A stretch of DNA of 64,000 bases from assembly GCA_947084985.1 (NCBI GenBank), contig CAMTUI010000026.1, positions 508-64,507 on the forward strand, written 5' to 3'. Below are positions 8,821-32,106 of this stretch, piece by piece. The notes below the pieces were generated by a model that was given only the letters and a program-made list of their open reading frames with translations, was not told where the DNA came from and did no database searches. The position numbers and the translations under genes are program-made. How positions within the stretch are numbered: position 1 is the stretch's first letter; each line of letters opens with the position of its first letter. Source of the stretch: Methanobacteriota archaeon. Its GTDB lineage: Archaea > Thermoplasmatota > Thermoplasmata > RBG-16-68-12.

Positions 8821-8997
8821 CTAAGCGCGCCTGTCTCCCCCTTCCCCCTTTTGCGCCTTGAATCTTGCCGAGTCCAGGTCGAGTTCGAAGTCCTCTTCCT
8901 TGACTTCGCTCGGGGTAAAGACCTTGCCGGCCTCAAACTCTAGCTTCTTTTCCTGCTTCTTCCGCTTCTTCGGCTTTTCCTCAACCTGCTGTGGCAT
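8821..8997 (-). CDS. Pup/UBact-like small protein (58 aa), not in the ORF track
   Basis: Hand translation gives MPQQVEEKPKKRKKQEKKLEFEAGKVFTPSEVKEEDFELDLDSARFKAQKGEGGDRRA. The ATG at 8997 overlaps the stop of the upstream ligase gene by 17 nt. The acidic helix plus 'FKAQKGE' resembles the Pup C-terminus 'YVQKGGQ/E'. Confidence 0.6.
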   Translation of the reverse strand: MPQQVEEKPKKRKKQEKKLEFEAGKVFTPSEVKEEDFELDLDSARFKAQKGEGGDRRA

Positions 8998-10279: not shown

Positions 10280-10282
10280 GCA

Positions 10283-11842: not shown

Positions 11843-12128
11843 CTGTGGATCACCGCGTGCGTATGCCCGCGAGTCGGCTGGGAATCAGGAGCATCTGCTC
11901 TTCGGACGGAAGTCCATGGAACAAGATGCGGCCTCGTCCCATCCCTTGTTAGAAAGTGGCATCCTGAATTAAAGCTTTTGTTATCGGTATTGAGCCTGCG
12001 ACGAACCAAGTTCCGCTGCGCTCTGCTGACGGATGTGCGCCTCCGTTAAACGCCCGCGCGACATCCGAGCGCGCAGACGTGTTTGTAGTAGCAATAAGAC
12101 CAAAAAGGGAGGCGCCGGTCCGCGGAGC

Positions 12129-14880: not shown

Positions 14881-14946
14881 CTATCGAAACGGACTAATTG
14901 GAGGGTTCTATTTAAATATATCGATGATGATAACACGTTTCGATAG
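14881..14946. promoter_or_regulatory. 11-bp perfect inverted repeat (CTATCGAAACG ... CGTTTCGATAG) flanking an AT-rich box upstream of the ArsR-family gene
   Basis: Read directly from the sequence. The arms are at 14881..14891 and 14936..14946, and 'TATTTAAATATAT' lies between them. The right arm ends 20 nt before the GTG at 14966. Confidence 0.5.
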
Positions 14947-16016: not shown

Positions 16017-18128
16017 ATGACGACAGATCCGCTCGATGCGATCTTCTCGCCATCCTCCATTGCCATCGTCGGCGCGTCCCGCAGCCGGGGCAAGATCGGT
16101 TACGAGATCCTGCACAACCTGATCCTGAACGAATACCAGGGGACGATTTACCCCGTCAACCCGAAGGCACGGAGCGTCCACGGGATCCCCGCGTATGCAA
16201 GCGTGCTCGCGATCCCCGACTCCGTGGACCTGGCGATCATCACGGTCCCCGTGGAGGTGGCCCTGGCGGCCGTCGAGGAATGCGGGAAGAAGGGCGTCCG
16301 CGGGCTCGTCGTGATCACGGCCGGGTTCCGGGAGGTCGGCGGCCCCGGGATCGAGCGGGAGGAACGCCTCCTCGCCTTGTGCCGGCAGTACGGGATGACG
16401 ATGATCGGCCCGAACTGCATGGGCGTCATCAACACGCACCCGGACGTCCGGATGGATGCGACGTTCGCCCCGACGCCGCCGTTGCGCGGCGGGATCTCCC
16501 TCGTCACGCAGAGTGGGGCGTTGGGCGTGGCGATCCTCGACCACGCGAAATCCCTCGGCGTAGGATTTGCGAAGTTCTGTTCCCTCGGAAACAAGGCGCA
16601 GGTCAGCCTGAACGATCTCCTCGCCGCGTGGAAGGACGATCCGGAGACGAGGATCATCCTCGCGTACATCGAGAACTTCGGGAACCCGAAGAACTTCGTG
16701 CGGATCGCGCGCGAGACGACGAAACGCAAGCCCGTCATCGCGATGAAATCCGGCCGCTCCGAGGCGGGAGGCCGAGCCGCCGCCTCGCACACGGGCTCCC
16801 TCGGAGGGTCCGACCTCGCGGCAGAAGCGGTGTTTAATCAAACGGGCGTCCTCCGGGCGAATTCGATCGAGGAGCTGTTCGACTACGCGATGGCGTTCTC
16901 ACTGCAGCAGCTGCCCAGAGGCAACCGGGTGGCCGTGGTCTCGGATGCGGGCGGACCTGCGATCATGTGCGTGGACGAACTCGTCGCGAATGGCCTTCGC
17001 CTCGCGGAGCTCTCGCCCGCCACGATCAGGTTGATGGAGACGTGGGCACCGCCTGAGGCCTCACTCCGAAATCCGATTGACCTGACGCCGCAAGGGAGCC
17101 TCGACGACTACCGCAACGCGCTCGATACGGTCCTCTCGGATGACGGCGTGGATGCGTGCATCGCGATCTATGTCCCTCCGGTCCGCGTGGACGAAGTGGA
17201 GGTCGCGCGAATCGTCTGGCAGACGGCCGAGAAGCATCACAAGCCGGTCCTCACAAACTTCCTCGGGCGGACGGAGGAGAGCCCGGGATTCGCGGAACTC
17301 GTGTCCCACGGGATCCCGTCCTATCTGTTTCCCGAGAGCGCGGCGCGAGCCCTCGCGGCGATGTACCGCTACGCTCGGTACCGCGAGCGGGAGGAAGGAA
17401 AGACGCGGATCTTCGAGGTGGACCGAGCACGTGCCGCCGAGATCCTCCGTCGCGCGCAAGCCGAAGGACGGCAGCGTCTCGCCGAAACGGAGGCGATGGA
17501 GTTCCTCGAGGCGTACGGCATCCGCACGGCGAAGTCGCGGATCGTCGCCTCGCGCTCGGAGCTGCCGGACGCCGCCCGCGAGATCGGATATCCGGTCGCC
17601 CTAAAAGCCGTCGGGAGCCAGCTCGTCCACAAGACGGATTTGAAGGCGGTCCTCCTCGACGTGCGCACGGAGCGCGAACTCGTTGACGGGGCACAGAAGA
17701 TGGAGCGGGGGCTGAAGGCACGCGGCGTCGCCCTCGACGGCTTCCTCCTCCAGGAGTACGTGGTGGACGGGAAGGAAGTCATCCTTGGGATGACGAGAGA
17801 CAAGGTGTACGGCCCCTTCCTCGTCTTCGGTCTCGGCGGCATCTACGTCGAATACCTCCAGGACGTCGCGTTCGGCCTGCCGCCGCTGACGGACCAGGAT
17901 GCGTCGAGGATGATCGAGTCGATCCGGACATATCCGCTCTTGACGGGCGTGCGCGGCGAGGCGCCGTGCGACGTCGACGCGCTCCGGGAGGCCCTCCTCC
18001 GCCTCGCGCAGGCGGTCCTCGATTTCGACGCGATCCAAGAGATGGACCTCAACCCCGTGATCGCGCTCGAGAAGGGAAAGGGATACCGCGCGGTTGATGC
18101 GCGAATCATCCTCGTTGGGCCGTCGTGA
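16017..18128 (+). CDS. ADP-forming acetyl-CoA synthetase (fused alpha-beta, CoA-binding + ATP-grasp)
   Basis: The CoA-binding N-terminus 'PSSIAIVGASRSRGKIGYEI', the 'GPNCMGVIN' and 'ASHTGSLGG' motifs, and the C-terminal ATP-grasp region all fit. It is 703 aa. Confidence 0.9.
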   Translation: MTTDPLDAIFSPSSIAIVGASRSRGKIGYEILHNLILNEYQGTIYPVNPKARSVHGIPAYASVLAIPDSVDLAIITVPVEVALAAVEECGKKGVRGLVVITAGFREVGGPGIEREERLLALCRQYGMTMIGPNCMGVINTHPDVRMDATFAPTPPLRGGISLVTQSGALGVAILDHAKSLGVGFAKFCSLGNKAQVSLNDLLAAWKDDPETRIILAYIENFGNPKNFVRIARETTKRKPVIAMKSGRSEAGGRAAASHTGSLGGSDLAAEAVFNQTGVLRANSIEELFDYAMAFSLQQLPRGNRVAVVSDAGGPAIMCVDELVANGLRLAELSPATIRLMETWAPPEASLRNPIDLTPQGSLDDYRNALDTVLSDDGVDACIAIYVPPVRVDEVEVARIVWQTAEKHHKPVLTNFLGRTEESPGFAELVSHGIPSYLFPESAARALAAMYRYARYREREEGKTRIFEVDRARAAEILRRAQAEGRQRLAETEAMEFLEAYGIRTAKSRIVASRSELPDAAREIGYPVALKAVGSQLVHKTDLKAVLLDVRTERELVDGAQKMERGLKARGVALDGFLLQEYVVDGKEVILGMTRDKVYGPFLVFGLGGIYVEYLQDVAFGLPPLTDQDASRMIESIRTYPLLTGVRGEAPCDVDALREALLRLAQAVLDFDAIQEMDLNPVIALEKGKGYRAVDARIILVGPS

Positions 18129-18600: not shown

Positions 18601-19464
18601 TCAGCGGATCGCCAGGAGGGCCACGCCGACGAAGATCGCCGCGACGCCGGCGTACTGAGGCCAGGTCAGGCGCTCGCGGAGGATCGCGACGGCGAGTCCG
18701 ACGGTCACGGCGCTGAACAGCCCGCTCAAGGTGCCGACGACGGCCACGGATCCTCCTTGGATGCCGACGTTGTATGCGAGGAATGCGAGGCTGTCCACCA
18801 CGCCAATCGCGAGGAGCGAGGAGACGAGGCCTCTCGGAGGCCGACCGATCGACCGTCCGCCCACGGCGACGGCGAGGAGGATCATGACGCCGACAAGACG
18901 AGAAAAAGCGGCGGACGTCACGGGCCCGAGCTCTACGACGGGATACTTGAGGGCGAAGTAGAACACGCCGTAGCCGGCGAACGCGACGAACGCGCTCACG
19001 ATCCCAACCCGAGGATCCTTCGCCGCAGGATTGGCAGGGTGGACCCGGCTCCGAGAGAGCCATATAATCCCCGAGAGGACCGCGACGATTCCCAAGGACG
19101 CGAGGCCGCCGGGCCGATCCCCCAGGAAGACGATCGCGAGGGTCGCGGTGACCGCCGGATAGCTGGACGCGAGAGGCGAGACGACCGAGAGGACGCCGTA
19201 CTCGAAGGACTTGTAGAGGAACAGAGAGGCGACGAGATTGATCGATCCCAGGACGACGAGCCAGAGCCACATGGTTGTCGCCTCCCAACGGGACGACTCG
19301 AACCAAACCGCGACGGGAAGGAGGATCACCATCCCGATGAGCTCCATGTAGAACAGGACGGAGAGGTGCCCGATGCGGTGAGATGCCTGCCGCGCGAGGA
19401 AGTCCCCGGTCCCGTATCCGGCGGCGGTCGTCAGGCCGAACGCGAGGTCCGAGGCGGCAGTCAC
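18601..19464 (-). CDS. EamA/DMT-family transporter
   Basis: It is 287 aa with about 10 hydrophobic segments and a two-fold internal repeat pattern typical of EamA. Confidence 0.8.
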   Translation of the reverse strand: MTAASDLAFGLTTAAGYGTGDFLARQASHRIGHLSVLFYMELIGMVILLPVAVWFESSRWEATTMWLWLVVLGSINLVASLFLYKSFEYGVLSVVSPLASSYPAVTATLAIVFLGDRPGGLASLGIVAVLSGIIWLSRSRVHPANPAAKDPRVGIVSAFVAFAGYGVFYFALKYPVVELGPVTSAAFSRLVGVMILLAVAVGGRSIGRPPRGLVSSLLAIGVVDSLAFLAYNVGIQGGSVAVVGTLSGLFSAVTVGLAVAILRERLTWPQYAGVAAIFVGVALLAIR

Positions 19465-19523
19465 AGGATCGCCCGGCGGGATTCGGCCATGGAACTTATC
19501 ATTGCGGGTCCGGCACAGCCATT

Positions 19524-19907
19524 ATGGTAGCGCCCACCGATGCCGAGGCGGAGGAATGCCATCTGTCCGCCCCCATCTCGTGCCCGAAGTGTGGATCCGC
19601 GAACGCCCCCGACAACCGATTCTGCGCCAAGTGCGGTTTTGCCCTTGCACCCGCGCCGCCGACGTGGTCCGCTCCTCATGGCGCCCCTATTCCGTACCCG
19701 CTCCCTTCGCTCCCTTCGTCCGCCCGCGCTCCGACGAGCGTTCTTGGAGTCGCGGGGGCCGTGATGTCGATGCTGGGAGGAGTCCTGATCGGGATCGGAT
19801 GGATCCTTCCGATCGAGTCGTTCTACATCGTGATCGGCGCAGGATGGATCCTGTTCGCTCCCGGAATCGCGCTCGGCCTCCTCGCCGCCTCCCAAAGGAG
19901 CTCGTGA
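19524..19907 (+). CDS. Zinc-ribbon membrane protein
   Basis: I chose the start at ATG 19524 (MVAPTD). 'CPKCGSANAPDNRFCAKCG' (C-x2-C-x10-C-x2-C) is followed by a Pro-rich linker and two hydrophobic segments. Confidence 0.6.
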   Translation: MVAPTDAEAEECHLSAPISCPKCGSANAPDNRFCAKCGFALAPAPPTWSAPHGAPIPYPLPSLPSSARAPTSVLGVAGAVMSMLGGVLIGIGWILPIESFYIVIGAGWILFAPGIALGLLAASQRSS

Positions 19908-19919: not shown

Positions 19920-20321
19920 TCATCCCGGCAGAGGCCTAGCGAACAGCTCAATCCAGATCCCGTCCGGGTCCTGGACGAACGCGAGGACCGTCCCGCCCTC
20001 GAGGAACGGCGGAATCCCGGGGCGCGCTCCCTTCGAGAGGAGCTCGTGATAGGCCGATTCGACGTCGTCGCAAGCGAACGCGATGTGGTCGAGCTCGTGA
20101 CCGTTGCGGTACGGACCCTCGAAGTGCGTGGACCCTTCCGGATACCAGTTCAGCTCGAGCATCTGAGGAGACCCGTCGCTCTGCAATTCGGCCCACTCCC
20201 CGCCCGTCTCCGGGACGCGCGTCCGTCGGTGGACCGTCATCCCGAGCACGTCCCGGTAGAATGCAAGCGAGGTGTCCATGTCGCGCACCTGGATCCCGAC
20301 GTACGTGAGCGTATATCGCAT
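19920..20321 (-). CDS. VOC-family protein (glyoxalase I-like), paralogue of 18131..18559
   Basis: 'MRYTLTYVGIQVRDMDTSLAFYRDVLGM...DPDGIWIELF' aligns with the other copy along its whole length. Confidence 0.8.
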   Translation of the reverse strand: MRYTLTYVGIQVRDMDTSLAFYRDVLGMTVHRRTRVPETGGEWAELQSDGSPQMLELNWYPEGSTHFEGPYRNGHELDHIAFACDDVESAYHELLSKGARPGIPPFLEGGTVLAFVQDPDGIWIELFARPLPG

Positions 20322-20430
20322 AGTGACCGGGGGTCGGAACCGGGGGGCAGCCGATAAGGCCATCGCCGGAGAGGGACGGCGCGCAACGCTTGTAATCCGG
20401 GACGGCTATGCCCGTCCGAGGCGAGAGAGC

Positions 20431-20805
20431 GTGATACAGTTGGACGTCGAGCTACCTGATCGACCCGGAGAGCTCGCGAAGCTCGCGGCCATCCTCGGAG
20501 ACGCGCGCATCAACATCGATGCGATGAGCGCCGAATCTGCGGGCGGCGAAACGTACGTGAGCCTGATCGTGAACCAGCCGGTGCAGGCCCGCGACGCGCT
20601 GATGAAGAACGGCTACACGTGCTCCACCCGGACGGTCCTCGTCGTGCGAATCGAGGACCGACCCGGCGCCTTGGCCCAGCTGTCCCGGAAACTTGGCGAC
20701 GCCGGCATCGACATCGTGAGCATGATCCATCTCGGCACCGTCGCTGGACATGCACAGCTCGCGATCGGTGTGGACAATCTCGAGAAGGCGAGGGCCCTCG
20801 TCTAG
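20431..20805 (+). CDS. ACT domain-containing protein (two ACT repeats)
   Basis: Two repeats of the 'DRPGELAKLAAILGDARINI' / 'DRPGALAQLSRKLGDAGIDI' pattern are present. I chose the start at GTG 20431. Confidence 0.7.
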   Translation: MIQLDVELPDRPGELAKLAAILGDARINIDAMSAESAGGETYVSLIVNQPVQARDALMKNGYTCSTRTVLVVRIEDRPGALAQLSRKLGDAGIDIVSMIHLGTVAGHAQLAIGVDNLEKARALV

Positions 20806-20936
20806 ACGGTCCGCGACGCGCCGCAAGTCGCAGTATCACATTCGATATCGAGAACACCCGGTCCGGGATAGAAACACTCAAATCAGGCCGCACTCCTATC
20901 TTCTCACATCCGCCACACGGGTTGGGAGGACGGACC

Positions 20937-21623
20937 TTGAGAGACGCATCGGAAGAGGGGGCGCCCCGCGAGGGCTTGGGCGTCGTGCCGACGGGCTATG
21001 CAATCTTCGGACCGAAGACGGTCCCGCGGGTCGACCACGAGCGAATTTTCGTGCTAGACGGTCAGGCGAATCTGCTCGGGGAGTATGCCCTGCGGGACGA
21101 GTGCCCGCTCGAGTACGCCGACCTCAAACGGTCCATCCCGGCAAGCGGGATGCGGCACCTCGTGTCCTTCTACCAGGGGGAATACGCCTTCACGCCCTTC
21201 CGCGTGGATGACATCTGGTTCGTCGTCCTGACGCGGGGCGTGCCGCGGATCGAGGACCGCGGCTCGATCGGGACCCTCCTCGCGGCGATGCGGCTCCATC
21301 TCCCCACCGTCCTCGCTCCCGCACTCGCGGAGCGGGAGGCGGTCCTCCGCCGACTGGAGCGCGATCTCGACGAACGAGAAGCATCGCTCATCATGCGGGA
21401 GCAACGTGTCGCACTACGGGAGTCGGAACTCCACTTCACGAACGCGACGCTCCGGGAGTTGGAGGTCGACGTGCTGGCGCGGGAGAACAAACTGAACGCG
21501 CTCCGCGACTATGCGGTCCGGATGCAGATCGCGTTCCGGAATGGGGAACCCAAACCACCGATGCAAGACCCGAAGAAGCGCAGCCCACACGAGTCCGACG
21601 TATCCGCCGGCCCGTCCCCGTGA
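20937..21623 (+). CDS. Coiled-coil protein, paralogue A of the triad (228 aa): conserved alpha/beta domain + short coiled coil
   Basis: The listed ORF overlaps the ACT gene, so I chose TTG 20937, which is preceded by GGGAGG 7 nt upstream. The domain 'RIFVLDGQANLLGEYALRDECPLEYADL...IWFVVLTRG' aligns with the two downstream genes. Confidence 0.65.
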   Translation: MRDASEEGAPREGLGVVPTGYAIFGPKTVPRVDHERIFVLDGQANLLGEYALRDECPLEYADLKRSIPASGMRHLVSFYQGEYAFTPFRVDDIWFVVLTRGVPRIEDRGSIGTLLAAMRLHLPTVLAPALAEREAVLRRLERDLDEREASLIMREQRVALRESELHFTNATLRELEVDVLARENKLNALRDYAVRMQIAFRNGEPKPPMQDPKKRSPHESDVSAGPSP

Positions 21624-21628
21624 CGGTC

Positions 21629-21634
21629 TTTTTT
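21629..21634 (+). terminator. T6 run immediately after the stop of paralogue A
   Basis: TGACGGTCTTTTTTCAG is read directly. Oligo-T tracts are the usual archaeal termination signal. Confidence 0.4.
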
Positions 21635-21660
21635 CAGACTCGATAACGGGGTCCCGCCCC

Positions 21661-21668
21661 TTAAATAA
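21661..21668 (+). promoter_or_regulatory. TATA-like box (TTAAATAA) upstream of paralogue B
   Basis: This is the only AT-rich element in the 114-nt intergenic region, 70 nt before ATG 21738. Confidence 0.4.
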
Positions 21669-21737
21669 GCTGCCGCCCGCTCGATTCACGATCGAGGGAC
21701 CGCGAGGCATCGCCTTCGCGGCCGAGGCGGACAGCGC

Positions 21738-23141
21738 ATGCAAGGGCTGATCGAGTCCCTCCTGTCGGGCATCGTGATGCGAGGCCTCAGCCCGACGCTC
21801 GTCTCCGTCCTGATGTCCGCGCCCCTGAAGAAAGTCACGCGAGCGCAACTCAAGAAGATCTACGTGCTCGACGATCGAGGCGAAATGGCGGGCGAGTACA
21901 TCCTCGACGCCGACTGCCCAATCGACTACAACGATTTTCTGAAGGTACTCCCCAACGAAGGGATCGGCGATCGCGATTCCCTCTTCGTCGGGGAGTACGT
22001 GTTCACGGCATTCCAGAGCGGCAGGTTCGTGTTCGTCCTCCTGTCCCGGGGCCAGCTGGCCACGGAGGACTTCGACTGGACGGCACTCCTCCTGACCGCA
22101 GCGGACTCTCATCTCGCCCGTGGCGCGGCCCGTCCGGTTCCCGCGCGTCCTTCGGAGGCGACGCCCGAGTCCGACAAGGCCCTGGCCGAACGCGAGTCGC
22201 GGATCGAATCCCGGGAGAAGGCCCTCGCGGAACTCGAGGTGAAGCTGAAGGCCGAGCAGGCGAACCTCGCCGGTCGCGGCGAAGAACTCGACCGACAGAA
22301 GCAGCGGCTCGCGGCCCTGGCAGACTACTCCGCGAGGATGCAAGACACGGTCACGAAAGGCGTGAATCGAGCGCTCAAAACACTCGAACTCGCGGAGCAG
22401 ATCTCTGCGACCTCGCGCACGGAATCGACGAAGACCGACGCGAAGGCCGCACTGGAACTCCGACAACGGTTCGAGCGAGAGCGGCAGGAACTCCTCGCCG
22501 CGAAGGCGGGCCTCGATGGGAAGTACCGCGATGCCGTCTCCCGGATTTCCAGGCTTGAGCAGGAGGCGAAGGACGCCGTCGCCAAGCTCGAGAACGAACG
22601 GGCGGCGGCGTCCGTGCGCGTCGCCGAGGAAGAGAAGACCCGAAGGGAGATCGAGACTCGTGTCGCCGAGCTGAGCCAGAGGTTCGCGGCCATGGCGAAG
22701 GAGAGGCTCGTCGCATCCCACCGGACGACGGAGCCGTCCGAGGCCGTCAAGCGGGCCGAGGAAGGCGAGAAAGCGGAGCTCGCGCGGGAGCGGAAGTTCC
22801 TCCAGCGTCGAGCGATCGAACTCCTCGATCGCGAGGAGCGGGTCCGGGATCACGAGGCGAGGGCGGAGCAACGGGAGCGGGACGTCGCACGGCGGGAGGA
22901 CGAGGTCGTGGCTCGCGAGGCGGACCTCGAACGGCAGAAGGTGCTTCTCGCCCAGGCGAAACTCCAGCCCGCGGAGGTCCGGGCGGAGAGCAACGAGGCC
23001 CGGAAAGACATCGAACGGCGGGTGAAGATCATCCAGCAGAAGGCCCTCGAACTGCTCGACCGTGAAGAGAAGCTGCGGAAGCGCGCGGCGGAACTCGAGG
23101 CGATGGAAGCCCGTCTTGCGGGACGGGTACCGGCCGGATGA
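21738..23141 (+). CDS. Coiled-coil protein, paralogue B of the triad (467 aa)
   Basis: The domain 'KIYVLDDRGEMAGEYILDADCPIDYNDF...FVFVLLSRG' is followed by about 310 aa of E/R/A/K/L-rich heptad-like sequence. The C-terminal 117 aa are homologous to the C-terminus of the giant gene. Confidence 0.75.
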   Translation: MQGLIESLLSGIVMRGLSPTLVSVLMSAPLKKVTRAQLKKIYVLDDRGEMAGEYILDADCPIDYNDFLKVLPNEGIGDRDSLFVGEYVFTAFQSGRFVFVLLSRGQLATEDFDWTALLLTAADSHLARGAARPVPARPSEATPESDKALAERESRIESREKALAELEVKLKAEQANLAGRGEELDRQKQRLAALADYSARMQDTVTKGVNRALKTLELAEQISATSRTESTKTDAKAALELRQRFERERQELLAAKAGLDGKYRDAVSRISRLEQEAKDAVAKLENERAAASVRVAEEEKTRREIETRVAELSQRFAAMAKERLVASHRTTEPSEAVKRAEEGEKAELARERKFLQRRAIELLDREERVRDHEARAEQRERDVARREDEVVAREADLERQKVLLAQAKLQPAEVRAESNEARKDIERRVKIIQQKALELLDREEKLRKRAAELEAMEARLAGRVPAG

Positions 23142-23186
23142 GCGTCGCCCCCTGTGTAATCAAGGGAGATAACCACCGAACCGGAC

Positions 23187-23194
23187 TTATATAG
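23187..23194 (+). promoter_or_regulatory. TATA-like box (TTATATAG) upstream of the giant gene
   Basis: This AT-rich element lies 70 nt before ATG 23264. GGAGGA lies 9 nt before the ATG. Confidence 0.4.
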
Positions 23195-23263
23195 GTCGCT
23201 CAGGCCTCGATTCTTGCTTTCCGGAAGGGGGAGTCCAGCCCTCTCGACCGGAGGATATCCGAC

Positions 23264-26200
23264 ATGCGTCCAGCCCTCGCGGTCACGCTAGTTCTTGCCC
23301 TCATCGCCAGCGTGCTCGCGGCCCCGCTCATCGTCGCGCATCCGGCGTCCGCGGATCCGTGGCCGACGAACAACGGAGACGGCACGTCGGTGGTCCTTTG
23401 GAACTTCACGAATCCGTCCGACTACGCGCTCACGGACGCGGAAGTCATCGGCGGGAGCGCTGCCCTCAAACGGCAGCTCGGGTGGTGGAACAGCACGAGT
23501 GCGGCAGACTTCACGGGACCCGACAGCGCCACGAACGCGAACTGGACACGTTGGCCCGGGGACGTCGTCATGGATTCCGTGGCCGGGCCGTCGACCCTCG
23601 TCACGATCCAGCCCGATGGGGCGACGGGCCTCGATGCCTATCTGGATCGCGGCAACGCGGACACGAACCGTGGTGCCGACGCGAGCATGGTCTTCGAGCC
23701 CCGCGGGTCAACCACTCGGCGGCCGATCCTTCAGTTCAGCCTTTCGGCTATCCCTGCAGGCGCGCTCATCGACGACGCAAAGCTCAGCCTTTACATGAGC
23801 GGCGCAGCGGCGAATTCTCCGGTGGCGGAAGTCCATTCGGTGACCGCGGCCTGGAACGAGGGTCAGGTTACCTGGAACAACCGCCTGACTGCGACGCCGT
23901 GGGGGAGTGCCGGGGGCGACTTCGTTGCCCATGTCGTCGATCAGTTGAGCCTCAACGCATCGCTAGGATGGAAGACGTGGAACGTCACGCAGCTCGTCGA
24001 CCTGTGGTATCGTGGGCGCCTCTCGAGCAACGGCCTTATCCTCACGGGCCCCACGACTGGACCGAACTTCGACAAGACGTTCTGGTCCTCTGATTATGCG
24101 GTAGACCCCAGCCTCCGTCCGAAGCTCGAGGTACGGTACCGAGTCATCGGGGCCGCCGGTGAGTACGTTTCCCGCGTCGGGGGGCCCGGTTCCCTCGTCG
24201 CCTGGGACTCCATTTCCTGGAACATGACGGAACGATCCTTCGCGACGGATGAGTTCGCCGGATCGTCCCTGGATCCAAAATGGACGTGGACAAACCCGCC
24301 CACCTCGTACGACGTCGGCACGACGACACCGGGGAGCCTCCATGCGGTATCGACGACAGGCGGGGACCTCGACGGAGCCACGTTCTCGGGCAACGTGCTC
24401 GCGAACGAAGTGGCGGGCGACTTCACCGCAATCGCGATGATCAGCGGCGACCCGACCGTAAGCGGGCAAAAACACGGACTCATGGTCCTGCTCAACAGTC
24501 GCAACTGGTACGCAATCCAGAAGGTAAACGCTTCGGGGAGCGTCAACTGGCAGGCGAAGTCCACCGCCGATGCCGCCACCGTAATCCGCGCGAACGTCGC
24601 GAGCGGGAACCCCGTTCCGGCGTGGTACCGGATCGGGCGATCCGGGAACACCTTCACGGCGTCAACGAGCTCCGATGGTGTTTCTTGGACCACACGGGAC
24701 ACGTACACGCCCGCGTTCGAGTATCCCCTCGAGGTCCGGATTGCCGTTTTCCTGACCGACGGACTCTCCGGGACCGCCCACACGGTCGATGCTGACTACG
24801 TCCGCGTGAACATCAGCAACGACGCCACGGTCGCCGTGAGCACGAGGACGGGGAACACGAGCACGGTGGACGCCTCCTGGTCCGCGTGGTCCGCACCGTA
24901 TCCTGCTCCGTCCGGTTCCCCCATGTCGGGGCGCACGAACTATGCACAGTTCCGCCTGACCTTGTCCGTCGCGTATCCGGATCACACGCCAAACATCGGC
25001 GACGTGAACATCTCCTGGACGACGTACCCGGCCTCGGGGACCGTCGAGACCGCGGATTTCGCGCCGGGCGACTTGGCGGAGTGGGACACGTTCGACGCCG
25101 TCCACACACTCAATGGACAGACGGTTGCGTACGCCTACTCGACGGATTCCGGCGGAAACTGGACCCCGTTGACACCGCCGCAATTCCTCCTGGGGGTGAG
25201 TACCGCCAGCGGAACAATCCGCTTCCGCGCGACACTCTCAACGGCGAGCGCGACCCTCACGCCGGTTGTCCGCGAGATGCGCCTCACGTATCGGCACATG
25301 CTGGACCACTTCTACGTGACGGCGTCATCGACCGCGACAGCGGGCGCCTCCTTCTCCATGACGGTGACTGCCAAGGACGCGGGCAACGCAACGATGACCT
25401 GGTGGACGGGCACCGTCACCCTTGACGCGGTACTGCCGGACGGCGTCACCCCCGCAAGTGGGGTCCTCGGCGTGACGAGCCTCGCGATTTCCGCAGGTGG
25501 CACGGCCACCTTGACCACGGAAACGTACACGAAGGCCGAGGTCATCCGGATCCGCGCAAGCCTCGGAACCGTGTCGGGTCTGAGCGGCCCGATCGATGTC
25601 TCTCCGGGCTCACTGAATCGAATCGCCGTGACGCCGAACGACGTCACTCTCCTTCCGTTCGACGGCCAGATTCTCACGGCCACCGGCTACGACGCCTGGA
25701 ACAATGTGATCTCAGTCCTCCCCTTCGGTTGGTCCGTCACCGGGGGCGTCGGGAGTTTGAACCTCTCTACCGGACCGAGCGTGAATTTCACTGCGAGTCC
25801 CCCGCCCGCGAACGGGATCGTCGAGGCGTCCGTTGGCGCAATCGTGGGGATTGCGCAAATCCATGTTGTCTCGGGCATCCGGCCGTGGGTCACGATCTCA
25901 GCGCCGGCGAGCGGAGACCATCTGACCGGCGCCGCGTCAGTTGATTACACGAACAGTTCCGATGCGGTGTCGATCCGCTTCGAGTACGACGACGGATCCG
26001 GATGGACGCTCATCGGGATGACGGTGACACTCAATGGGACGTTCCTCTGGGACACGACGGGACTCGACTTCGCGGGCGGGAGCCTTCGGGCGATCGTCAC
26101 GAACAATCGGGCGACCACGAACACGACGACAGTGACTCCGATCGAGGTCGACAATACCCCGCCCACCATCACGGTTGGCTCGGCTGTCGATTCGCAGTCG

Positions 26201-29200
26201 ACGAGCGGGACAATCACGCTCACATACGCAACATCACCCGATGTCGTCCAGGTTAACTTCGCATACTTCGACGGGGCATGGAACTCCATCGGTTCCGACG
26301 TCACCGTTGACGGCTCCTACGTGTGGACGCCCGGCATCCCGATCAACGGAGTGACGGTCCGCGCAACCGCCGTGGACGAGGTGGGCCTATGGGGAACCGG
26401 CGAGAGACTAGGGATTGGCAACCGCACCGTGGGCACAAACCCGCCATCAATCCAAGGGATCCCGGCCCTCCACGTTCGCGTGGGCACGGCGTACGGCCTG
26501 AACCTCAGCTTCTACGTCTCCGATCCCGACACGGGTCTCGCGTCCCTCTCGATCACGGTCGCGGATCCTGCGAACGTCACGGTCCTCGGTGGCCCCTACC
26601 CGAGCCTGACGATCACCTACGGGACATCGGGCACCTTCGTGCTCACTGTGTGGGTGTCCGACGGTATCGACACCGCCTGGGCCTTCCTCACAATCATCGC
26701 CTCCGGCGTGAGCCCGCCTGTCGTCCTCCTAAATCCTCCGGCGGTGGCCTTCGATGAGGATACGACCTCGGTCAACGGATTCGGCGTACCGGCCGGAACG
26801 TTCATCGATGATCCCGACGGGGACCCCCTCACGTTCGAGGTCCTCGGAAACCGGACGGTACACGTCCGAGTGAACGCGGGAGGGACAATCGACTTTTGGG
26901 CCGATCCGAACTGGTACGGCTCCGAAGCGATGCGACTCCGCGCAACGGATCCCACCGGCGGATTCGCGGAGACCTCCTTCATCGTCCTCGTGCGGTCCGT
27001 CAACGACGCGCCCATCCTCGCTCTGATCCCGGACCTCTCAATCGACGCAGCTGTGACATACATCCTTAACCTCGGTCCGTTCCTTTCCGACGTCGACACC
27101 CCGCTTTCCTCCGTGACCGTGACGACGGACAGCCCATACGTCACGGTGAACGGACACATCCTCACCCTGGCGTTCCCGTCCGATTGGACGAACGCCGATA
27201 TCCAAATCACCGTCTCCGATGGCTCGGCGGTCGCGCTCCAGACCGTGCGGGTGGCGTTCCGCGTCACCCCGACCTGGTGGAGCTCCCCCTACGTGCTCGC
27301 AATCCCGCCTATCGGTGTATTCGTGGTGGTAGCCATGTTTGCGCAACGCGCGCGCTGGAGGCCGACGAAGGCCTTCCTTGTGGACGAACGCGGTCGAATG
27401 ATCAGGGAATTCACCCTGGATCCCTCCTGTCAGGTCACGTACGACGAGGCCGTGCAGGCGGGCGCCTTGGAGGCCGTCGAGAAGCCGATCAAGGTGGCCA
27501 AGTACCACGCCCAGACGGTCCGTGGGGACGCCCTCGCGGTCGTCCTCCTGGCCGTCGGCCCCGTGACCGTGGAGCAGGTCGAGTTCGCGCGGGAGATGCT
27601 CGTCCAGATTCAGGACAAGTTCGAGGACACGGTGAAGTCCCGCCTCGAGGAAGCGCGGGCGTACGAGGCGGAACTCGAGGGGCAGGCGAATTCGATCGGG
27701 GAGCAGCAGGCGGCCATGGAGGGACGAGCCACGGAAATCGAATCCATGATCCAGCAGGTCGAGGTCGCGCAGTCGAAGGTCTCGACGGAGACGGCGGCTC
27801 TCGCCACGCGAGAGCAATCTCTCGAGGCCCGCGAGCGGCAGGTCGCCGAAGACCGACGGGTCGTGGACGACTTGGCACGCCAGCTCGAAGAGCTTCGCGT
27901 ATCCCTCGAAAATAGAGGCGCGAAGATCCAGGAGCAGGCCGGAGAGGTCGTTCGGAGGACGGAGGCCATCGTCGCGAGGGAGAATGCGATCGCCCCGCAC
28001 GAGGAGGCCCTCGCGAAGCGGGAGGAAGGGATCGCCGCGGCGGAAGCGGCTCTGAAGGCCCAGGCGGAACTCATGGACAGGAAGGCATCCGACTTGGCGG
28101 CCCAGGAGCACGTCCTGGCCGAGCGCGGGGCCGTTGTGACAGACGAAGAGGAGGAACTCCGTGCCGCACAACAGGCGTTCGAAGATGACCAGAAGGAAGT
28201 GCTGGATTTCCGAGCGTCGATTGACTCCCGCGTTGCGGCCGTGGAAAAAGCGGAGTCGGATATCGCATCGAATCGCAAGGAACTCGAGGACCGCGAATCG
28301 CGCATCACGCCGAAAGAAAAGGAACTTCAAGAACGGGAGTCCGCCCTACTGGACAGGGAAACGGCCATCCAGGCGGAGATCGCCAAGCGCACGAAACATC
28401 TCGAAGACCGAGAGGCCCAGCTTTCCCAGGAGGCGGAGCAGCTCCAGACAAAGAGCCAGGAGATCGAACAGAGTCTCCGATCCATCGAGACCCAGTCGAA
28501 CGAGCTGTCCGCCGAGCGAACGAGCATCGACGAAGGTCGCGCGGCTCTGGAGCGCGAACGAGCCTCCTTGGAGAGACGCATTCAGACACTGGATGCCGAG
28601 CTGCGAACGCGAAAGGAGGACCTCGACGCTCAGGCACGAGCGGTGGCGGACGGACAGCTTCAGCTCTCTCAGGACAAGCAGACGTTTGACGGGCTGAGGG
28701 GCGAGAAATCCCATTGGATCGCATCGAAGGAGATTGAGCTCGAGTCGCTGGAACAGGCCCTCTCCGAAAAGGAGGCGGCCGTCCGCTCGCAGGCCGAGCA
28801 GAACGCGCAGCAGCTCGCGGACCTGGCCGCCCGAGAGGAGACCCTCGAAATCGAGGCGGATCGGCTCGAGAAGGACCACGCCGAACTCGACGCGCGCAAG
28901 GGCGAGCTCGACAAGCTCGCGAAGAACCTCGACGCGAAGGCCGTGCAGCTTCGCGAGGAAGAGGCCCGCAAAGCGGAAGAGTACCGCACGTGGCAGGCAA
29001 CCCTAGAGTCGGAGCAGACCCTCCTGCGGCAGCAGCGGGAGACCTTCGAGAAGGAAATGTCCGACCTCCGCGACTCCTGGGCCGCCCGAATGCTCCGCAT
29101 CCAGGAGCGCGAGGAGAATGTTGCGGCGCGCGAGGAAAAGGCAGGCGAGGGCATTGAATGGGCCGCGAAGGCCGAGGAAGAAGTAACGCGCCGCGAGAAG

Positions 29201-31582
29201 GCGGTTCAGACCGCGTCCGCCGAGGCGGACCGAATGAACGCCGAGGTCGAGGCGAAACGGAAGGAGGTCGAGCAGCGAGCCTTCGAGGTGGAAGCTCGTG
29301 AACGGTCCCTGCGCGAGGAGGCGGCCACGCATGCGGATGAACTCACACGACGCGACGCGGCCTTGCGGACCGCGGAGAGTCAGCTGGCCGAGAAGCGCGC
29401 GGAAATGGAACGGAATCTGACCGCCCGGTCCCTGAAGTTGCAAGAAGCCGAGACGGACATCACCCGTAAGGGGCAAGAGAACGATGCCAAGATCGCAGAG
29501 GTGACCGGCCGGGAAGTGCGGCTCGTTTCCCTCCAGGAGTCCCTGCGGCAAGAACAGGAACGCCTCGTCCGGGAGCGAAAGGACCTCCAGATCGCAGCCG
29601 AGCAGCTGGACGCGAAGCAGGTCGAGCTGGCCCAACAGAGGCAGCGTCACGCCGAAGAGGCCGTGCGCTTCCAGGCGGAAGCGGAGTCGATCCGCCATTC
29701 CCTCGCCGCGAAGGAAGCGGACCTGCAATCGGAGCGGGAACGGCTCGAGAGGGAGTCTACATCCCTGCAGGACCGTCTCGGAGCGAAAGCGCAGGAGTTC
29801 GTGTCCCGGGAACGATCAATCTCCGCGCGCGAGGACGAACTCCGTGCGGAAGAGCAAGATCTCGAAGGCCGCATCCGAGCCATCGAATCGCGAGAACGAC
29901 AGGTCGATGCGCAGGCGGGAGAAGTCGCCGCCCAGACCGCCGCTCTGTCGAAACGACAGGCCGAGGTCGACGCGCGAGCCGCCCAACTCGAGACGATGGC
30001 GCGGAAGTTGCTCGTCGACCAGGAGGAAAAGCAGAAAGAATGGGAATCCGTGCGGACCGCCCTCAAGTCGCAGGAAGCGAAAATCAGCGCGACGGCGGAA
30101 TCGCGGATGGCACAGATCACCGAGCAGGTCACGGAACTCGAAGCTCAAGAACGGTCCCTTGCCGTGACGGCAGCCCAGCTCGAGGCGGAAACGGCGCGGC
30201 TCGCAGATGCTGCGAAGGCCCAGTCGGCGAAGGACGCGGAGGCGTCCGCGGCGATGTCGCGGGCTGAGAAGCGGTTCCAGGAGATCCAGGCCCGTGAGGC
30301 GGAAGTCCTCCAGATGCGTCAGGCGTTCGAGTCGGAGCGATCCTCTTGGGCCAGCCGGCGGGCGGAGGAACTCAAGCAGCTCGAGGCGACCCGCGATGCG
30401 GCTGCGGAGCAGACACAGAAGGCGGAGCGGCTCACCCAGGACGCGCAGCGGCGCGCTCTCCTGGCGAGCGAAGCGGAACGGGCCGCGAGGCGCCAGGCGG
30501 ATGACCTTGCGGCCTTGCATGCCGATCTGGAGACGCGCCGCGCCGATCTCGATAAGCTCGAGCGGACGCTGAAGGCTCAGAACTCCCAATACCAGGAGAC
30601 CTCGCGCGGGCTCGCCGTGAAGGAAACGGAGCTCACCGCGCGCGGGAAGGATCTCCAGGCAGAGCAGGCGCGTCTCGTCGCAGCGGAGCAGGACCTCACA
30701 TCGAAGACGGAGGGCCTGAAGGCTCGCCAAGCGAATCTGGAGCGGGAGGCGGCCCGCGTCGCGGAACTCAACGCGAACACCGAAGCGCGCAAGGCTGACG
30801 CCCAGGCGCGCGTGAGCGCCGCGGAAGCGAAGATGGCCGAGGTCGCCCAGCGTGAGCGTGTCCTCACCACGGAGCTTCAGCGGGCGGAAAACCTGATGGA
30901 AGATCTCGGGCGCAAGCAAGATGAGATTCGCGCAAAGGAGAAGACGCTCGCATCCGTCGAGGCGGACTTCGGAATGCGTAAGTCCGCGGTGGCCCAAAAG
31001 GAGGCCGAGCTGAAGGAGGGCCTGAAAGTCCTCGAGTCGATGCGACGGGACCTAGAGGCCCGGCTCGGGGCCATCGACCAGGACCGCTCGGCGGCTGCGA
31101 CGGCTCGCGAAGAGGCCGTGGCCCTGAAGGCCGAGGCGGACCGGGCGAAGGCACAGGTCGAGACGATGGGGAAGGAGGTCGCCAAGAACATGAGGTTCCT
31201 CCAGAAGAAGGCCGTCGACGTCCTCGACCGCGAGGAGAAGGTCCGCGATCTCGAGCAGAACGCGCAGGAACGGGAAAAGACGCTGGAGGCCCGCGCGGAA
31301 ATCCTCGAGGCAAAGGAGAAGGCGATCGAGGAGGAGCGCACCCAGATGGTCGCCAAGATGGAACGGCTCCAGTCCGAGATCGACCGGTTCAAGGGGAAGC
31401 TCTCCGATGCTGAAAAGGCCGCGAAGCCGACCGCCGAGATGGAAGACTGGAAGAAGGACATCGACAACCGCGTGAAGATCATCCAGCGGAAGGCGATGGA
31501 CCTCCTGGACCGCGAGGAGAAGCTCCGGAAGAGGGAGGAAGAGCTCCAGGCGCTCGCACAGCAGCTCGGCGTGAAGCCCTAA
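23264..31582 (+). CDS. Giant single-pass membrane protein (2772 aa): secreted multi-domain ectodomain, one TM helix, cytoplasmic alpha/beta domain and very long coiled coil (paralogue C)
   Basis: This is an uninterrupted 8.3-kb ORF with a signal peptide 'MRPALAVTLVLALIASVLAAPLIVAHPASA'. It carries a DNRLRE-like module ('ADTNRGADASM...ILQFSLSAIPAGALIDDAKLSLY...VTAAWNEGQVTWNN'), a ConA/LamG-like module ('DEFAGSSLDPKWTW...') and Ig-like and cadherin-like ('SVNDAPIL') repeats. The TM segment is 'SPYVLAIPPIGVFVVVAMFA', followed by 'QRARWR'. Confidence 0.85.
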   Translation: MRPALAVTLVLALIASVLAAPLIVAHPASADPWPTNNGDGTSVVLWNFTNPSDYALTDAEVIGGSAALKRQLGWWNSTSAADFTGPDSATNANWTRWPGDVVMDSVAGPSTLVTIQPDGATGLDAYLDRGNADTNRGADASMVFEPRGSTTRRPILQFSLSAIPAGALIDDAKLSLYMSGAAANSPVAEVHSVTAAWNEGQVTWNNRLTATPWGSAGGDFVAHVVDQLSLNASLGWKTWNVTQLVDLWYRGRLSSNGLILTGPTTGPNFDKTFWSSDYAVDPSLRPKLEVRYRVIGAAGEYVSRVGGPGSLVAWDSISWNMTERSFATDEFAGSSLDPKWTWTNPPTSYDVGTTTPGSLHAVSTTGGDLDGATFSGNVLANEVAGDFTAIAMISGDPTVSGQKHGLMVLLNSRNWYAIQKVNASGSVNWQAKSTADAATVIRANVASGNPVPAWYRIGRSGNTFTASTSSDGVSWTTRDTYTPAFEYPLEVRIAVFLTDGLSGTAHTVDADYVRVNISNDATVAVSTRTGNTSTVDASWSAWSAPYPAPSGSPMSGRTNYAQFRLTLSVAYPDHTPNIGDVNISWTTYPASGTVETADFAPGDLAEWDTFDAVHTLNGQTVAYAYSTDSGGNWTPLTPPQFLLGVSTASGTIRFRATLSTASATLTPVVREMRLTYRHMLDHFYVTASSTATAGASFSMTVTAKDAGNATMTWWTGTVTLDAVLPDGVTPASGVLGVTSLAISAGGTATLTTETYTKAEVIRIRASLGTVSGLSGPIDVSPGSLNRIAVTPNDVTLLPFDGQILTATGYDAWNNVISVLPFGWSVTGGVGSLNLSTGPSVNFTASPPPANGIVEASVGAIVGIAQIHVVSGIRPWVTISAPASGDHLTGAASVDYTNSSDAVSIRFEYDDGSGWTLIGMTVTLNGTFLWDTTGLDFAGGSLRAIVTNNRATTNTTTVTPIEVDNTPPTITVGSAVDSQSTSGTITLTYATSPDVVQVNFAYFDGAWNSIGSDVTVDGSYVWTPGIPINGVTVRATAVDEVGLWGTGERLGIGNRTVGTNPPSIQGIPALHVRVGTAYGLNLSFYVSDPDTGLASLSITVADPANVTVLGGPYPSLTITYGTSGTFVLTVWVSDGIDTAWAFLTIIASGVSPPVVLLNPPAVAFDEDTTSVNGFGVPAGTFIDDPDGDPLTFEVLGNRTVHVRVNAGGTIDFWADPNWYGSEAMRLRATDPTGGFAETSFIVLVRSVNDAPILALIPDLSIDAAVTYILNLGPFLSDVDTPLSSVTVTTDSPYVTVNGHILTLAFPSDWTNADIQITVSDGSAVALQTVRVAFRVTPTWWSSPYVLAIPPIGVFVVVAMFAQRARWRPTKAFLVDERGRMIREFTLDPSCQVTYDEAVQAGALEAVEKPIKVAKYHAQTVRGDALAVVLLAVGPVTVEQVEFAREMLVQIQDKFEDTVKSRLEEARAYEAELEGQANSIGEQQAAMEGRATEIESMIQQVEVAQSKVSTETAALATREQSLEARERQVAEDRRVVDDLARQLEELRVSLENRGAKIQEQAGEVVRRTEAIVARENAIAPHEEALAKREEGIAAAEAALKAQAELMDRKASDLAAQEHVLAERGAVVTDEEEELRAAQQAFEDDQKEVLDFRASIDSRVAAVEKAESDIASNRKELEDRESRITPKEKELQERESALLDRETAIQAEIAKRTKHLEDREAQLSQEAEQLQTKSQEIEQSLRSIETQSNELSAERTSIDEGRAALERERASLERRIQTLDAELRTRKEDLDAQARAVADGQLQLSQDKQTFDGLRGEKSHWIASKEIELESLEQALSEKEAAVRSQAEQNAQQLADLAAREETLEIEADRLEKDHAELDARKGELDKLAKNLDAKAVQLREEEARKAEEYRTWQATLESEQTLLRQQRETFEKEMSDLRDSWAARMLRIQEREENVAAREEKAGEGIEWAAKAEEEVTRREKAVQTASAEADRMNAEVEAKRKEVEQRAFEVEARERSLREEAATHADELTRRDAALRTAESQLAEKRAEMERNLTARSLKLQEAETDITRKGQENDAKIAEVTGREVRLVSLQESLRQEQERLVRERKDLQIAAEQLDAKQVELAQQRQRHAEEAVRFQAEAESIRHSLAAKEADLQSERERLERESTSLQDRLGAKAQEFVSRERSISAREDELRAEEQDLEGRIRAIESRERQVDAQAGEVAAQTAALSKRQAEVDARAAQLETMARKLLVDQEEKQKEWESVRTALKSQEAKISATAESRMAQITEQVTELEAQERSLAVTAAQLEAETARLADAAKAQSAKDAEASAAMSRAEKRFQEIQAREAEVLQMRQAFESERSSWASRRAEELKQLEATRDAAAEQTQKAERLTQDAQRRALLASEAERAARRQADDLAALHADLETRRADLDKLERTLKAQNSQYQETSRGLAVKETELTARGKDLQAEQARLVAAEQDLTSKTEGLKARQANLEREAARVAELNANTEARKADAQARVSAAEAKMAEVAQRERVLTTELQRAENLMEDLGRKQDEIRAKEKTLASVEADFGMRKSAVAQKEAELKEGLKVLESMRRDLEARLGAIDQDRSAAATAREEAVALKAEADRAKAQVETMGKEVAKNMRFLQKKAVDVLDREEKVRDLEQNAQEREKTLEARAEILEAKEKAIEEERTQMVAKMERLQSEIDRFKGKLSDAEKAAKPTAEMEDWKKDIDNRVKIIQRKAMDLLDREEKLRKREEELQALAQQLGVKP
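27284..27343 (+). other. Predicted transmembrane helix of the giant protein (aa 1341-1360)
   Basis: This is the only long hydrophobic stretch after the signal peptide. The positive cluster RARWRPTK on its C-terminal side suggests the C-terminus is cytoplasmic. Confidence 0.7.
27629..31579 (+). repeat. Region encoding about 1317 aa of low-complexity E/A/R/K/Q/L coiled coil
   Basis: Heptad-like, almost Pro/Gly-free sequence with recurring 'xRExxL' units (for example 'DRESRITPKEKELQERESALLDRETAIQ'). I saw no exact nucleotide tandem repeats. The region generates long spurious antisense ORFs. Confidence 0.75.
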
Positions 31583-31629
31583 TCCGCACCCGCCGGGAGC
31601 CGGCGCAAAGGGCATATCCCGCACACGCC

Positions 31630-32106
31630 TTGCCCGGCCCAGGGAGAGAGATGATAGACCGCCGAGTCATCGAGACGCCGCTCGGGGGCGTCGAAGTCTT
31701 CACGGAAGACGGACGGCTGAAGGCCTTGAACCTCACACGGGCGCGACCCACACCGGCCGCGGACCGCGAGCTGATCGTCCGCGAAATTCAGCGGTACTTC
31801 GCTGGGGAACCCGTCCGATTCGAGAACCTGCCGCTCGATCTGAGCGATTCCACGGAGTTCGAGAAGAAAGTCTACGAGGCCACGCGGGCAATTCCGTTCG
31901 GCAATGTGGCCACATACGGCCAAATCGCGAAGGCGATCGGAAAACCGAAGGCCGCTCGGGCCGTTGGACAGGCTCTCGGGAACAACCCGATTGCAATCGT
32001 AATCCCGTGCCATCGGGTCGTTGCTTCGGACGGCGGCCTCGGGGGCTTCACGGGCGGACTGCACTGGAAGAGGAAGCTCCTCCGGCACGAGGGCGTGTTG
32101 CACTAG
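31630..32106 (+). CDS. ogt: Methylated-DNA--protein-cysteine methyltransferase
   Basis: Contains the active-site motif 'IVIPCHRVV' and 'ATYGQIAKAIGKPKAARAVGQALGNNP'. Confidence 0.9.
   Translation: MPGPGREMIDRRVIETPLGGVEVFTEDGRLKALNLTRARPTPAADRELIVREIQRYFAGEPVRFENLPLDLSDSTEFEKKVYEATRAIPFGNVATYGQIAKAIGKPKAARAVGQALGNNPIAIVIPCHRVVASDGGLGGFTGGLHWKRKLLRHEGVLH

Follow-up and report, generated by a model that had tools for sequence, protein, structure and literature searches.

The 64-kb stretch of archaeal DNA analysed here (the window; contig CAMTUI010000026.1 of an uncultured Methanobacteriota archaeon from soil, placed in Thermoplasmata) contains three open reading frames (ORFs) on the same strand, designated genes A, B and C, which encode proteins of 228, 467 and 2772 amino acids (aa), respectively. 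Based on sequence comparison, the three genes are confirmed as true paralogues that share an alignable module of about 90 aa. Proteins A and B align over 200 aa with 33% identity (BLASTP E-value, 4e-23), and the module of B matches that of C with a BLASTP E-value of 2e-8. Direct pairwise comparison of A with C gave no significant match, and the two are linked through B as a bridge; A-type and C-type profiles built separately nevertheless align in register (hhalign E-value, 8e-5). Thus, the original prediction, which was made from the letters of the window and proposed such a module, was right on this point, and its own caveat that the similarity might be compositional noise can be set aside.

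In the multiple alignment, the invariant positions of the module are R, E, L, C, Y, Y, V, L, G and E. A, B and C have a single cysteine each, which is the invariant one of the module, and none is found among the other 2771 residues of C. Searches of Pfam, NCBIfam and PADLOC with A, B, C and 18 module sequences returned nothing on the module or on the C-terminal tail motif described below, and no significant match emerged when the PDB was searched, by profile and by sequence, for counterparts of the module, of the tail motif and of the ectodomain of C.

In each protein the module is followed directly by a coiled coil, as had been anticipated, with a length of 77 aa in A, about 330 aa in B and 1317 aa in C. 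The AlphaFold2 model of A consists of a disordered N-terminus, the module, one helix and a disordered, proline-rich tail; its coil is a single unbroken helix of 77 residues (predicted local distance difference test score, pLDDT, >90), corresponding to about 11 nm. The coil of B would extend for about 50 nm. About 65 residues past the module, A and B also have in common the motif L-x-A-L-x-D-Y-x-x-x-M-Q, which was found at aa 186–197 of A and aa 191–202 of B and agrees with the 'L(N/A)AL(R/A)DY(A/S)xRMQ' noted beforehand. Neither A nor B has a signal peptide or a C-terminal hydrophobic segment. At the N-terminus of B (aa 1–29), two short hydrophobic stretches flank a conserved Gly/Pro. The 19-residue Kyte–Doolittle mean of this region is below 1.6 in the window and about 2.0 in one orthologue. 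Since the segment falls below the transmembrane (TM) threshold here and above it in an orthologue, its sequence suggests that B may be peripherally or monotopically membrane-bound, and the solubility of B is uncertain.

Gene C encodes a putative type-I membrane protein with a signal peptide, an ectodomain of about 1310 aa in which Thr, Ser, Gly and Asn are abundant, and one TM helix (aa 1343–1360), which agrees with the expected membrane-spanning member; of the two supposedly soluble partners, B may not qualify. The ectodomain matches CBM96, DUF1349, GH43_C2 and Big_9 in Pfam. Residues 124–290 form a DNRLRE/CBM96 domain (NCBIfam NF033679, 95.4 bits at a cutoff of 34; Pfam PF24517, 48.5 bits at a cutoff of 26), residues 328–478 a ConA-like domain, and residues 1160–1252 Big_9/tandem-95 immunoglobulin (Ig)-like domains. 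In total, 21 N-x-S/T sequons are present in the ectodomain against one in the 1411 residues past the TM helix, and the ectodomain is probably glycosylated. The TM helix is directly followed by the sequence QRARWRPTK with four positive charges. Based on the signal peptide, the TM helix, the positive flank and the sequon imbalance, the module and coil of C are predicted to be cytoplasmic, in agreement with A and B, which have no signal peptide.

The coil of C has the properties expected of a coiled coil, namely heptad periodicity, a helix-compatible composition and few Pro or Gly residues. It contains three prolines, 17% Ala, 17% Glu and 11% Arg, and the power of its 3.5-residue hydrophobic periodicity is 5.9, compared with 0.94 in the ectodomain. 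If continuous, it would be about 195 nm long. No tandem repeats were found in the DNA encoding it, so the coil is not a recent repeat expansion. The region 28000–32000 of the window shows an AT skew of up to 0.34–0.38 and a GC skew of about 0.09; these are accounted for by the purine-rich codons (GAG, AAG, GCG and CAG) of the coil, and a replication feature was ruled out.

Proteins B and C share a further element that had been missed in the original prediction, a doubled C-terminal motif (BLASTP E-value, 4e-13). The first copy reads (K/R)FLQ(R/K)(R/K)A(I/V)(E/D)(L/V)LDREE(R/K)VRD and the second RVKIIQ(Q/R)KA(L/M)(E/D)LLDREEKLRKR. Among 27 orthologues of B, the tail motifs are conserved like the module, with a column identity of 0.8–0.92 compared with 0.4–0.5 in the intervening coil, and smaller conserved islands are found at aa 166–195 and aa 301–330. 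A dedicated search with the tail motif gave matches only in fragments of the A/B/C family and in no other protein context. Readings of the motif as a MIM/ESCRT-type or a dileucine signal were considered and dropped, since its residue spacing departs from the consensus of these signals. The coordinates of all these elements are given in Table 1.

Table 1. Coordinates, within the 64-kb window, of genes A, B and C and of the elements associated with them.
Feature	Position	Strand	Description and evidence
Gene A	20937–21623	+	228 aa, TTG start; ORF, Shine–Dalgarno-like GGAGG, G+C content at third codon positions, orthologue starts, AlphaFold2 model
Module of A	21039–21302	+	aa 35–122; alignments, AlphaFold2 strands and helices, Foldseek
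Module cysteine of A	21102–21104	+	aa 56
A/B-specific motif in A, LNALRDYAVRMQ	21492–21527	+	aa 186–197, near coil end; BLASTP; kept in A orthologues
T6 run	21629–21634	+	6 nt past A stop codon; candidate archaeal terminator, putative function
B promoter region	21642–21668	+	GATAAC 21642–21647, TATA-like TTAAATAA 21661–21668
B leader hairpin CGCGAGG-N5-CCTTCGCG, then AGGCGGnCAGCGnATG	21701–21720	+	16-species alignment, RNAalifold
Gene B	21738–23141	+	467 aa; hydrophobic N-terminus aa 1–29, module, ~330-aa coil, doubled tail motif
Module of B	21852–22115	+	aa 39–126; AlphaFold2 pLDDT 81, Foldseek, 80–96% column identity over 27 orthologues
Module cysteine of B	21915–21917	+	aa 60
A/B-specific motif in B, LAALADYSARMQ	22308–22343	+	aa 191–202
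B tail copy 1, KFLQRRAIELLDREERVRD	22794–22850	+	BLASTP against C; conservation 0.8–0.92
B tail copy 2, RVKIIQQKALELLDREEKLRKR	23019–23084	+	also in distant family members
C promoter region	23168–23193	+	GATAAC 23168–23173, TATA-like TTATATA 23187–23193
Gene C	23264–31582	+	2772 aa, predicted type-I membrane protein
Signal peptide and extracellular region of C	23264–27289	+	signal peptide aa 1–~30
Single TM helix of C	27290–27343	+	aa 1343–1360; Kyte–Doolittle 2.12
Module of C	27365–27628	+	aa 1368–1455; starts 8 residues past TM helix
Module cysteine of C	27428–27430	+	aa 1389
C coiled coil	27629–31579	+	aa 1456–2772, 1317 aa; includes tail motifs 31193–31249 and 31469–31534
GATAAC copies	11980–11985 (−), 14929–14934, 21642–21647, 23168–23173		

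The structure of the module was predicted by AlphaFold2 from an alignment of 18 module sequences (pLDDT, 81; predicted template modelling score, 0.73), and an independent run on full-length A produced the same fold (pLDDT, 77); the module models exclude the hydrophobic aa 1–29 of B. Both models have the topology beta-beta-alpha-beta-beta-beta-alpha. In Foldseek searches against the PDB, the top 50 matches of both models all belong to the longin/Roadblock/profilin superfamily. They include the N-terminal domains of the mu subunits (mu-N) and the sigma subunits of AP2, AP3 and AP4, zeta-COP, Sec22b, VAMP7, TRAPP, Mon1-Ccz1, SRX, LAMTOR2–5, EGO-TC, the C-terminal domains of Rag proteins, MglC, dynein LC7, Asgard Roadblock proteins and profilin. 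The best matches are the longin domains of AP2 mu2 and sigma2, with a query-based TM-score (TMq) of 0.61–0.64 and a root-mean-square deviation (rmsd) of about 3 Å for AP2 mu2-N; for the isolated module, TMq is 0.55–0.64 and the rmsd to AP2 mu2-N 2.8–3.9 Å. Thus, the predicted core of a five-stranded sheet with a central helix, together with its structural neighbours, is that of the Roadblock/longin superfamily. At the sequence level, no match to Robl_LC7 (PF03259), even at E-values up to 10, or to Longin (PF13774) was obtained for A, B, C or the 18 module sequences, and the PDB profile search with the module found no Roadblock protein. Accordingly, the initial guess of a Roadblock/LC7- or longin-type domain holds at the level of the predicted fold, while at the sequence level membership in either family is not detectable. 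Because the Foldseek E-values, at 1.8e-3 to 4e-2, are only modest and never fall below 1e-3, the module is treated as showing a modelled, statistically weak resemblance to the Roadblock/longin fold, not as a member of these families.

The models also depart from the known folds in detail. The N-terminal helix of Roadblock domains is absent from them, the first element being a strand, and the N-terminus of A is disordered (pLDDT <50). The longin topology is matched except for a single C-terminal helix, which runs on into the coil, and the central helix has only 7 residues. Since the module has neither the N-terminal helix of Roadblock nor the second C-terminal helix of longin domains, one face of its sheet is predicted to be open and could take a helix in trans. 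In LC7-type domains, a partner helix binds at the open face of the sheet. According to the literature, Roadblock and longin domains act as dimeric platforms (PMC10933270), and the module is likewise probably a pairing domain, as well as membrane-associated.

The module profile was also used in a HMMER scan of 1.84 billion cluster representatives, which yielded 103 proteins at E-values of 1e-3 or lower. All of the traceable family members originate from Thermoplasmata, in uncultured metagenome-assembled genomes from soil and sediment, while word-indexed protein searches recovered close relatives only, mostly as short fragments. Giant C-type relatives, of up to 4767 aa, open with a signal peptide and an ectodomain that measures between 350 and more than 3200 aa; next come the TM helix, the module, the coil and the tail motif. 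Forms with a short ectodomain (P0180, P0185, P0189 and P0198) have 20–50 aa outside, and their TM helix, module, coil and tail motif are all retained. Soluble B-like proteins with the doubled tail motif and A-like proteins without it were found as well. The module cysteine is kept in the majority of distant family members. One branch (P0176 and P0195) has lost it, and the MttB gene carried on the contig of this branch suggests that it belongs to Methanomassiliicoccales.

The gene order was examined in one genome per GTDB species, with an alignment of B alone as the query. Gene B was found in 31 species, labelled as Thermoplasmata, 'Methanobacteriota/Euryarchaeota archaeon' or Methanomassiliicoccales, in a locus with the order acetyl-CoA synthetase, ACT-domain gene, A (where present), B and a giant ORF. 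In the window, a zinc-ribbon gene (19383–19907) and a gene with two ACT domains (20272–20805) lie upstream of A. In all assessable loci, the ACT gene directly precedes A or B, and a very large ORF is located 3' of B in every locus with enough downstream sequence. Wherever its true start is identifiable, this ORF opens with a signal peptide, and its length often exceeds 2900 aa by the point where the locus ends, with the frame still open. Gene A lies directly 5' of B in 21 of the 31 loci, is absent from seven, in which the ACT gene abuts B (L006, L007, L009, L010, L011, L014 and L020), and is not readable in the remaining three, whose contigs end too near B. Based on these data, the conserved unit in the clade of the window is B plus C, with A as an accessory paralogue that has probably been lost in one subclade. 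Hence the expected co-occurrence of the three genes in other genomes holds for B and C in the assessable loci of the 31 species, and in part for A. In several metagenome-assembled genomes, e.g., at loci L016 and L026, gene C is fragmented by frameshifts.

The ectodomain of C is often unrelated to that of the window, and has been replaced or hugely expanded in ten loci (L003, L006, L007, L011, L014, L016, L019, L023, L027 and L028), whereas the cytoplasmic module is 77–88% identical. In a more distant lineage (L035, 405–4387), a B-like gene for 357 aa follows ArsR and acetyl-CoA synthetase genes and is not followed by a C gene. Another B-like gene (L033) also has no C-type neighbour, and in another distant lineage two module genes stand in tandem (L037, 1285–3150).

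Among the AT-rich promoter-like boxes proposed for the genes, TATA-like sequences were identified before B (TTAAATAA) and before C (TTATATA), and the T6 run reported after A was also present. The box of B is conserved in about 20 species, with GATAAC 13 nt before it, and that of C only in loci whose C N-terminus resembles that of the window. Orthologues of A carry TTCGATAACGAGAAC upstream, and A of the window has the variant GATATC (20844–20849). The hexamer GATAAC occurs four times in the 64 kb, compared with about 10 copies expected, and all four are promoter-proximal, upstream of TATA-like boxes or gene starts (those of an AAA ATPase gene, an ArsR gene, B and C). It could be the site of a shared regulator or a lineage-specific promoter element. 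The leader of B contains a hairpin of the form CGCGAGG-N5-CC(C/T)TCGCG, which is kept, with hardly any covariation, across 16 species or more (loci L003–L031), and the leader (21701–21737) may act as a translational or RNA-stability element.

The TTG start assigned to gene A is preceded by GGAGG at a distance of 9 nt, coincides with a rise in G+C content at third codon positions from 0.55 just upstream to 0.83 inside the gene, and matches the orthologues, which also start with M-R-E/D at the same position. The window has a G+C content of 64–68% and an archaeal gene content, including a fused ADP-forming acetyl-CoA synthetase (16017–18128), MGMT, FTR1 and DtxR; no tRNA gene and no Rfam family were found in it. 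On the opposite strand (8981–11842, −), a gene of the Pup-ligase family (PF03136; E-value, 1.7e-89) adjoins that of an AAA ATPase which has an OB domain of the proteasomal-ATPase type. The G+C content of this stretch is 0.60–0.61, compared with about 0.65 elsewhere in the window, and the presence of a pupylation-like gene pair in Thermoplasmata suggests that it was acquired from bacteria by horizontal transfer.

Taken together, A, B and C are tentatively proposed, at somewhat less than even chances, to form a small, lineage-specific submembrane coiled-coil scaffold of Thermoplasmata, by which a variable surface protein would be connected with the cytoplasm. The general plan of the family would be an optional ectodomain and TM helix, a longin/Roadblock-like head, a parallel coiled-coil rod and the doubled tail motif. 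C would run from a carbohydrate-binding, Ig-like ectodomain through the TM helix to a membrane-apposed head and a cytoplasmic rod of about 195 nm. B would be a cytoplasmic, possibly membrane-associated version of about 50 nm with the same head and tail motifs as C, and A, reduced to the head and the first part of the coil, may serve as an optional cap or modulator. The rods would dimerise, the heads would pair in the Roadblock/longin manner, the tail motif would join B with C, and 'ALxDYxxRMQ' would join A with B. Anchored by the TM helix of C, and perhaps also by the N-terminus of B, such rods would form a lattice or tether beneath the membrane, coupling the surface coat mechanically to the cell interior. 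The hetero-oligomeric filament or tether suggested originally is a plausible reading of the shared interaction-type motifs and the architecture.

Several observations support the scaffold. The variability of the ectodomain, set beside the 77–88% identity of the cytoplasmic module, fits a conserved intracellular job combined with a fast-evolving surface. A GATAAC-type promoter element lies upstream of all three genes (as the variant GATATC before A in the window), heptad periodicity and a near absence of proline persist over 1317 aa of C, and the tail motifs are conserved like the head, recur in distant family members and are absent elsewhere. Other observations weigh against it. The Foldseek E-values are modest, and the alignments behind the AlphaFold2 models are shallow (18–20 sequences). 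Gene A is absent in at least seven species and distant B-like genes stand without a C neighbour, so a three-protein complex is not obligatory. Moreover, long coiled coils have many unrelated roles.

The size of the carbohydrate-binding, Ig-rich ectodomain and its great variation among species, as for a surface protein under selection, would also be explained if C were an adhesin or cell-coat protein, with the coil as a mere anchor or a secretion/assembly handle and with B and A as helpers in its insertion or turnover. This is considered unlikely, as a coil of 1317 aa far exceeds the needs of an anchor, the conserved part of the protein is the cytoplasmic one, and family members with only 20–50 aa outside keep the whole cytoplasmic plan. 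The fold matches to MglC, LAMTOR, Rag C-terminal domains, Mon1-Ccz1 and TRAPP raise the question whether the module is a membrane-anchored platform of the MglB, Ragulator or TRAPP type, which recruits or regulates an Arf-, Rag- or MglA-like small GTPase and for which the coils are spacers or effector arms; indeed, Roadblock- and longin-type domains usually work with GTPases (PMC10933270). However, a motif scan of the 64-kb window and 37 related loci detected no small GTPase, that is, no ORF combining GxxxxGK[ST], DxxG and [NT]KxD. This counts as weak counter-evidence, because in Asgard archaea GTPase genes are often not adjacent to their own Roadblock/longin genes (PMC10933270). Together with the lack of sequence similarity to Robl_LC7 or Longin, and with a modelled central helix of 7 residues, the element used by Roadblock domains for dimerisation and GTPase contact, it makes a GTPase platform rather improbable.

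It is very unlikely that C is an outside-in signalling receptor, in which a ligand shifts the pairing of the heads or the state of the cysteine and the change is relayed along the coil to A and B. The position of the head 8 residues past the TM helix, the single, invariant cysteine of each protein and the conserved structured 5' leader of B would suit such a receptor, but no output domain (kinase, HAMP or DNA-binding) occurs in any family member, and the cysteine has been lost in one branch. An SMC-like or other chromosome- or DNA-tethering protein, or a component of a defence system, is effectively refuted, as the defining domains are absent. The matches that could point in this direction, to SMC_prok_B (63.7 bits at a cutoff of 567), the archaeal SMC-related protein model ASRP (32 bits at a cutoff of 300) and JetC, lie far below the cutoffs and cover segments of the coil only; they were rejected as compositional, together with a match to the RNase Y N-terminus. 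The JetC match (E-value, 3.6e-4) was the only one among the PADLOC defence models and does not establish membership. No ATPase head, hinge or nuclease domain was found, C has no Walker motif, and the genes occupy a stable syntenic chromosomal locus. A bolder version of the proposed scaffold is a self-assembling membrane skeleton, in which the open face of the longin-like head binds the tail helices of neighbouring rods to give a head-to-tail polymer of 50- and 195-nm struts riveted to a glycan-binding coat, and which might be switched through the single invariant cysteine; as yet this extension is speculative and rather doubtful.

Comparison with known systems places the family close to several of them and within none. 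With the Roadblock/LC7-longin-profilin superfamily (MglB/MglC, LAMTOR2–5, dynein LC7, AP2 mu2-N and sigma2, zeta-COP, Sec22b, and TRAPP Bet5/Trs23) the module shares the predicted five-stranded antiparallel sheet and the central and C-terminal helices. It differs in the absence of detectable sequence similarity and of the additional Roadblock or longin helices, in its very short central helix, in a C-terminal helix that passes straight into a long coil, and in having no GTPase nearby. The longin SNAREs (Sec22b, VAMP7 and Ykt6) likewise combine a longin-type head, a coiled coil and membrane anchoring in one polypeptide, and A, with its head, helix of about 77 aa and no TM segment, superficially resembles Ykt6. 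In the A/B/C family, by contrast, C has its TM helix on the N-terminal side of the head and not as a C-terminal tail anchor, the coils are 5–20 times longer, and there is a doubled tail motif of its own. No SNARE or synaptobrevin match was found in Pfam, and A and B have no C-terminal anchor; the family is thus not assigned to the SNAREs.

Golgins, kinectin, EzrA and the crescentin/FilP-type coiled-coil-rich proteins are long coiled-coil tethers or cytoskeletal proteins with which the family can be compared on general grounds, namely for rods of hundreds to more than 1000 aa and a single TM anchor, and the short motifs at the rod ends are comparable to the helix-termination motifs of intermediate filaments. 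Family relatives gave faint matches to CRWN_N and HmpF. There is, however, no sequence relationship to these proteins, and nothing in them corresponds to the globular longin-like head or to the giant extracellular domain. The ectodomain of C resembles archaeal and bacterial DNRLRE/CBM96 surface proteins, as residues 124–290 pass both model cutoffs; no such protein is known to possess a cytoplasmic longin-like head and a coil of 1300 aa.

Both ingredients, the Roadblock/longin fold and membrane tethers made of long coiled coils, are of a known kind, whereas no annotation, family model or paper was found to describe the module, the tail motif or the three-gene arrangement. Literature searches on longin/Roadblock domains, coiled coils and archaea or Thermoplasmata yielded no description of the A/B/C family, and an ESCRT survey is silent on it. 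Together with the lack of Pfam, NCBIfam, PADLOC and PDB sequence matches, this agrees with the original view that the combination is not a described system.

Many Thermoplasmata have no rigid wall, and the organisation and stabilisation of their envelope are poorly understood. No membrane skeleton made of coiled coils is known from archaea, and the locus offers a concrete, conserved and compact candidate for one, consisting of a giant TM protein and one or two small paralogues. The scaffold proposal is testable, as the motifs through which the proteins would interact are short and well delimited, and A and B, being small, should be easily expressed. The module itself would add to the Roadblock/longin fold a new branch that is an orphan in sequence and that, in a euryarchaeal lineage, is joined to a TM helix and long coils; this bears on the use of the 'trafficking' fold before eukaryotes. 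If the self-assembling skeleton were true, it would functionally play in archaea the part of spectrin- or LINC-type linkages, and its basis would be the fold of eukaryotic adaptor, SNARE and Ragulator complexes.

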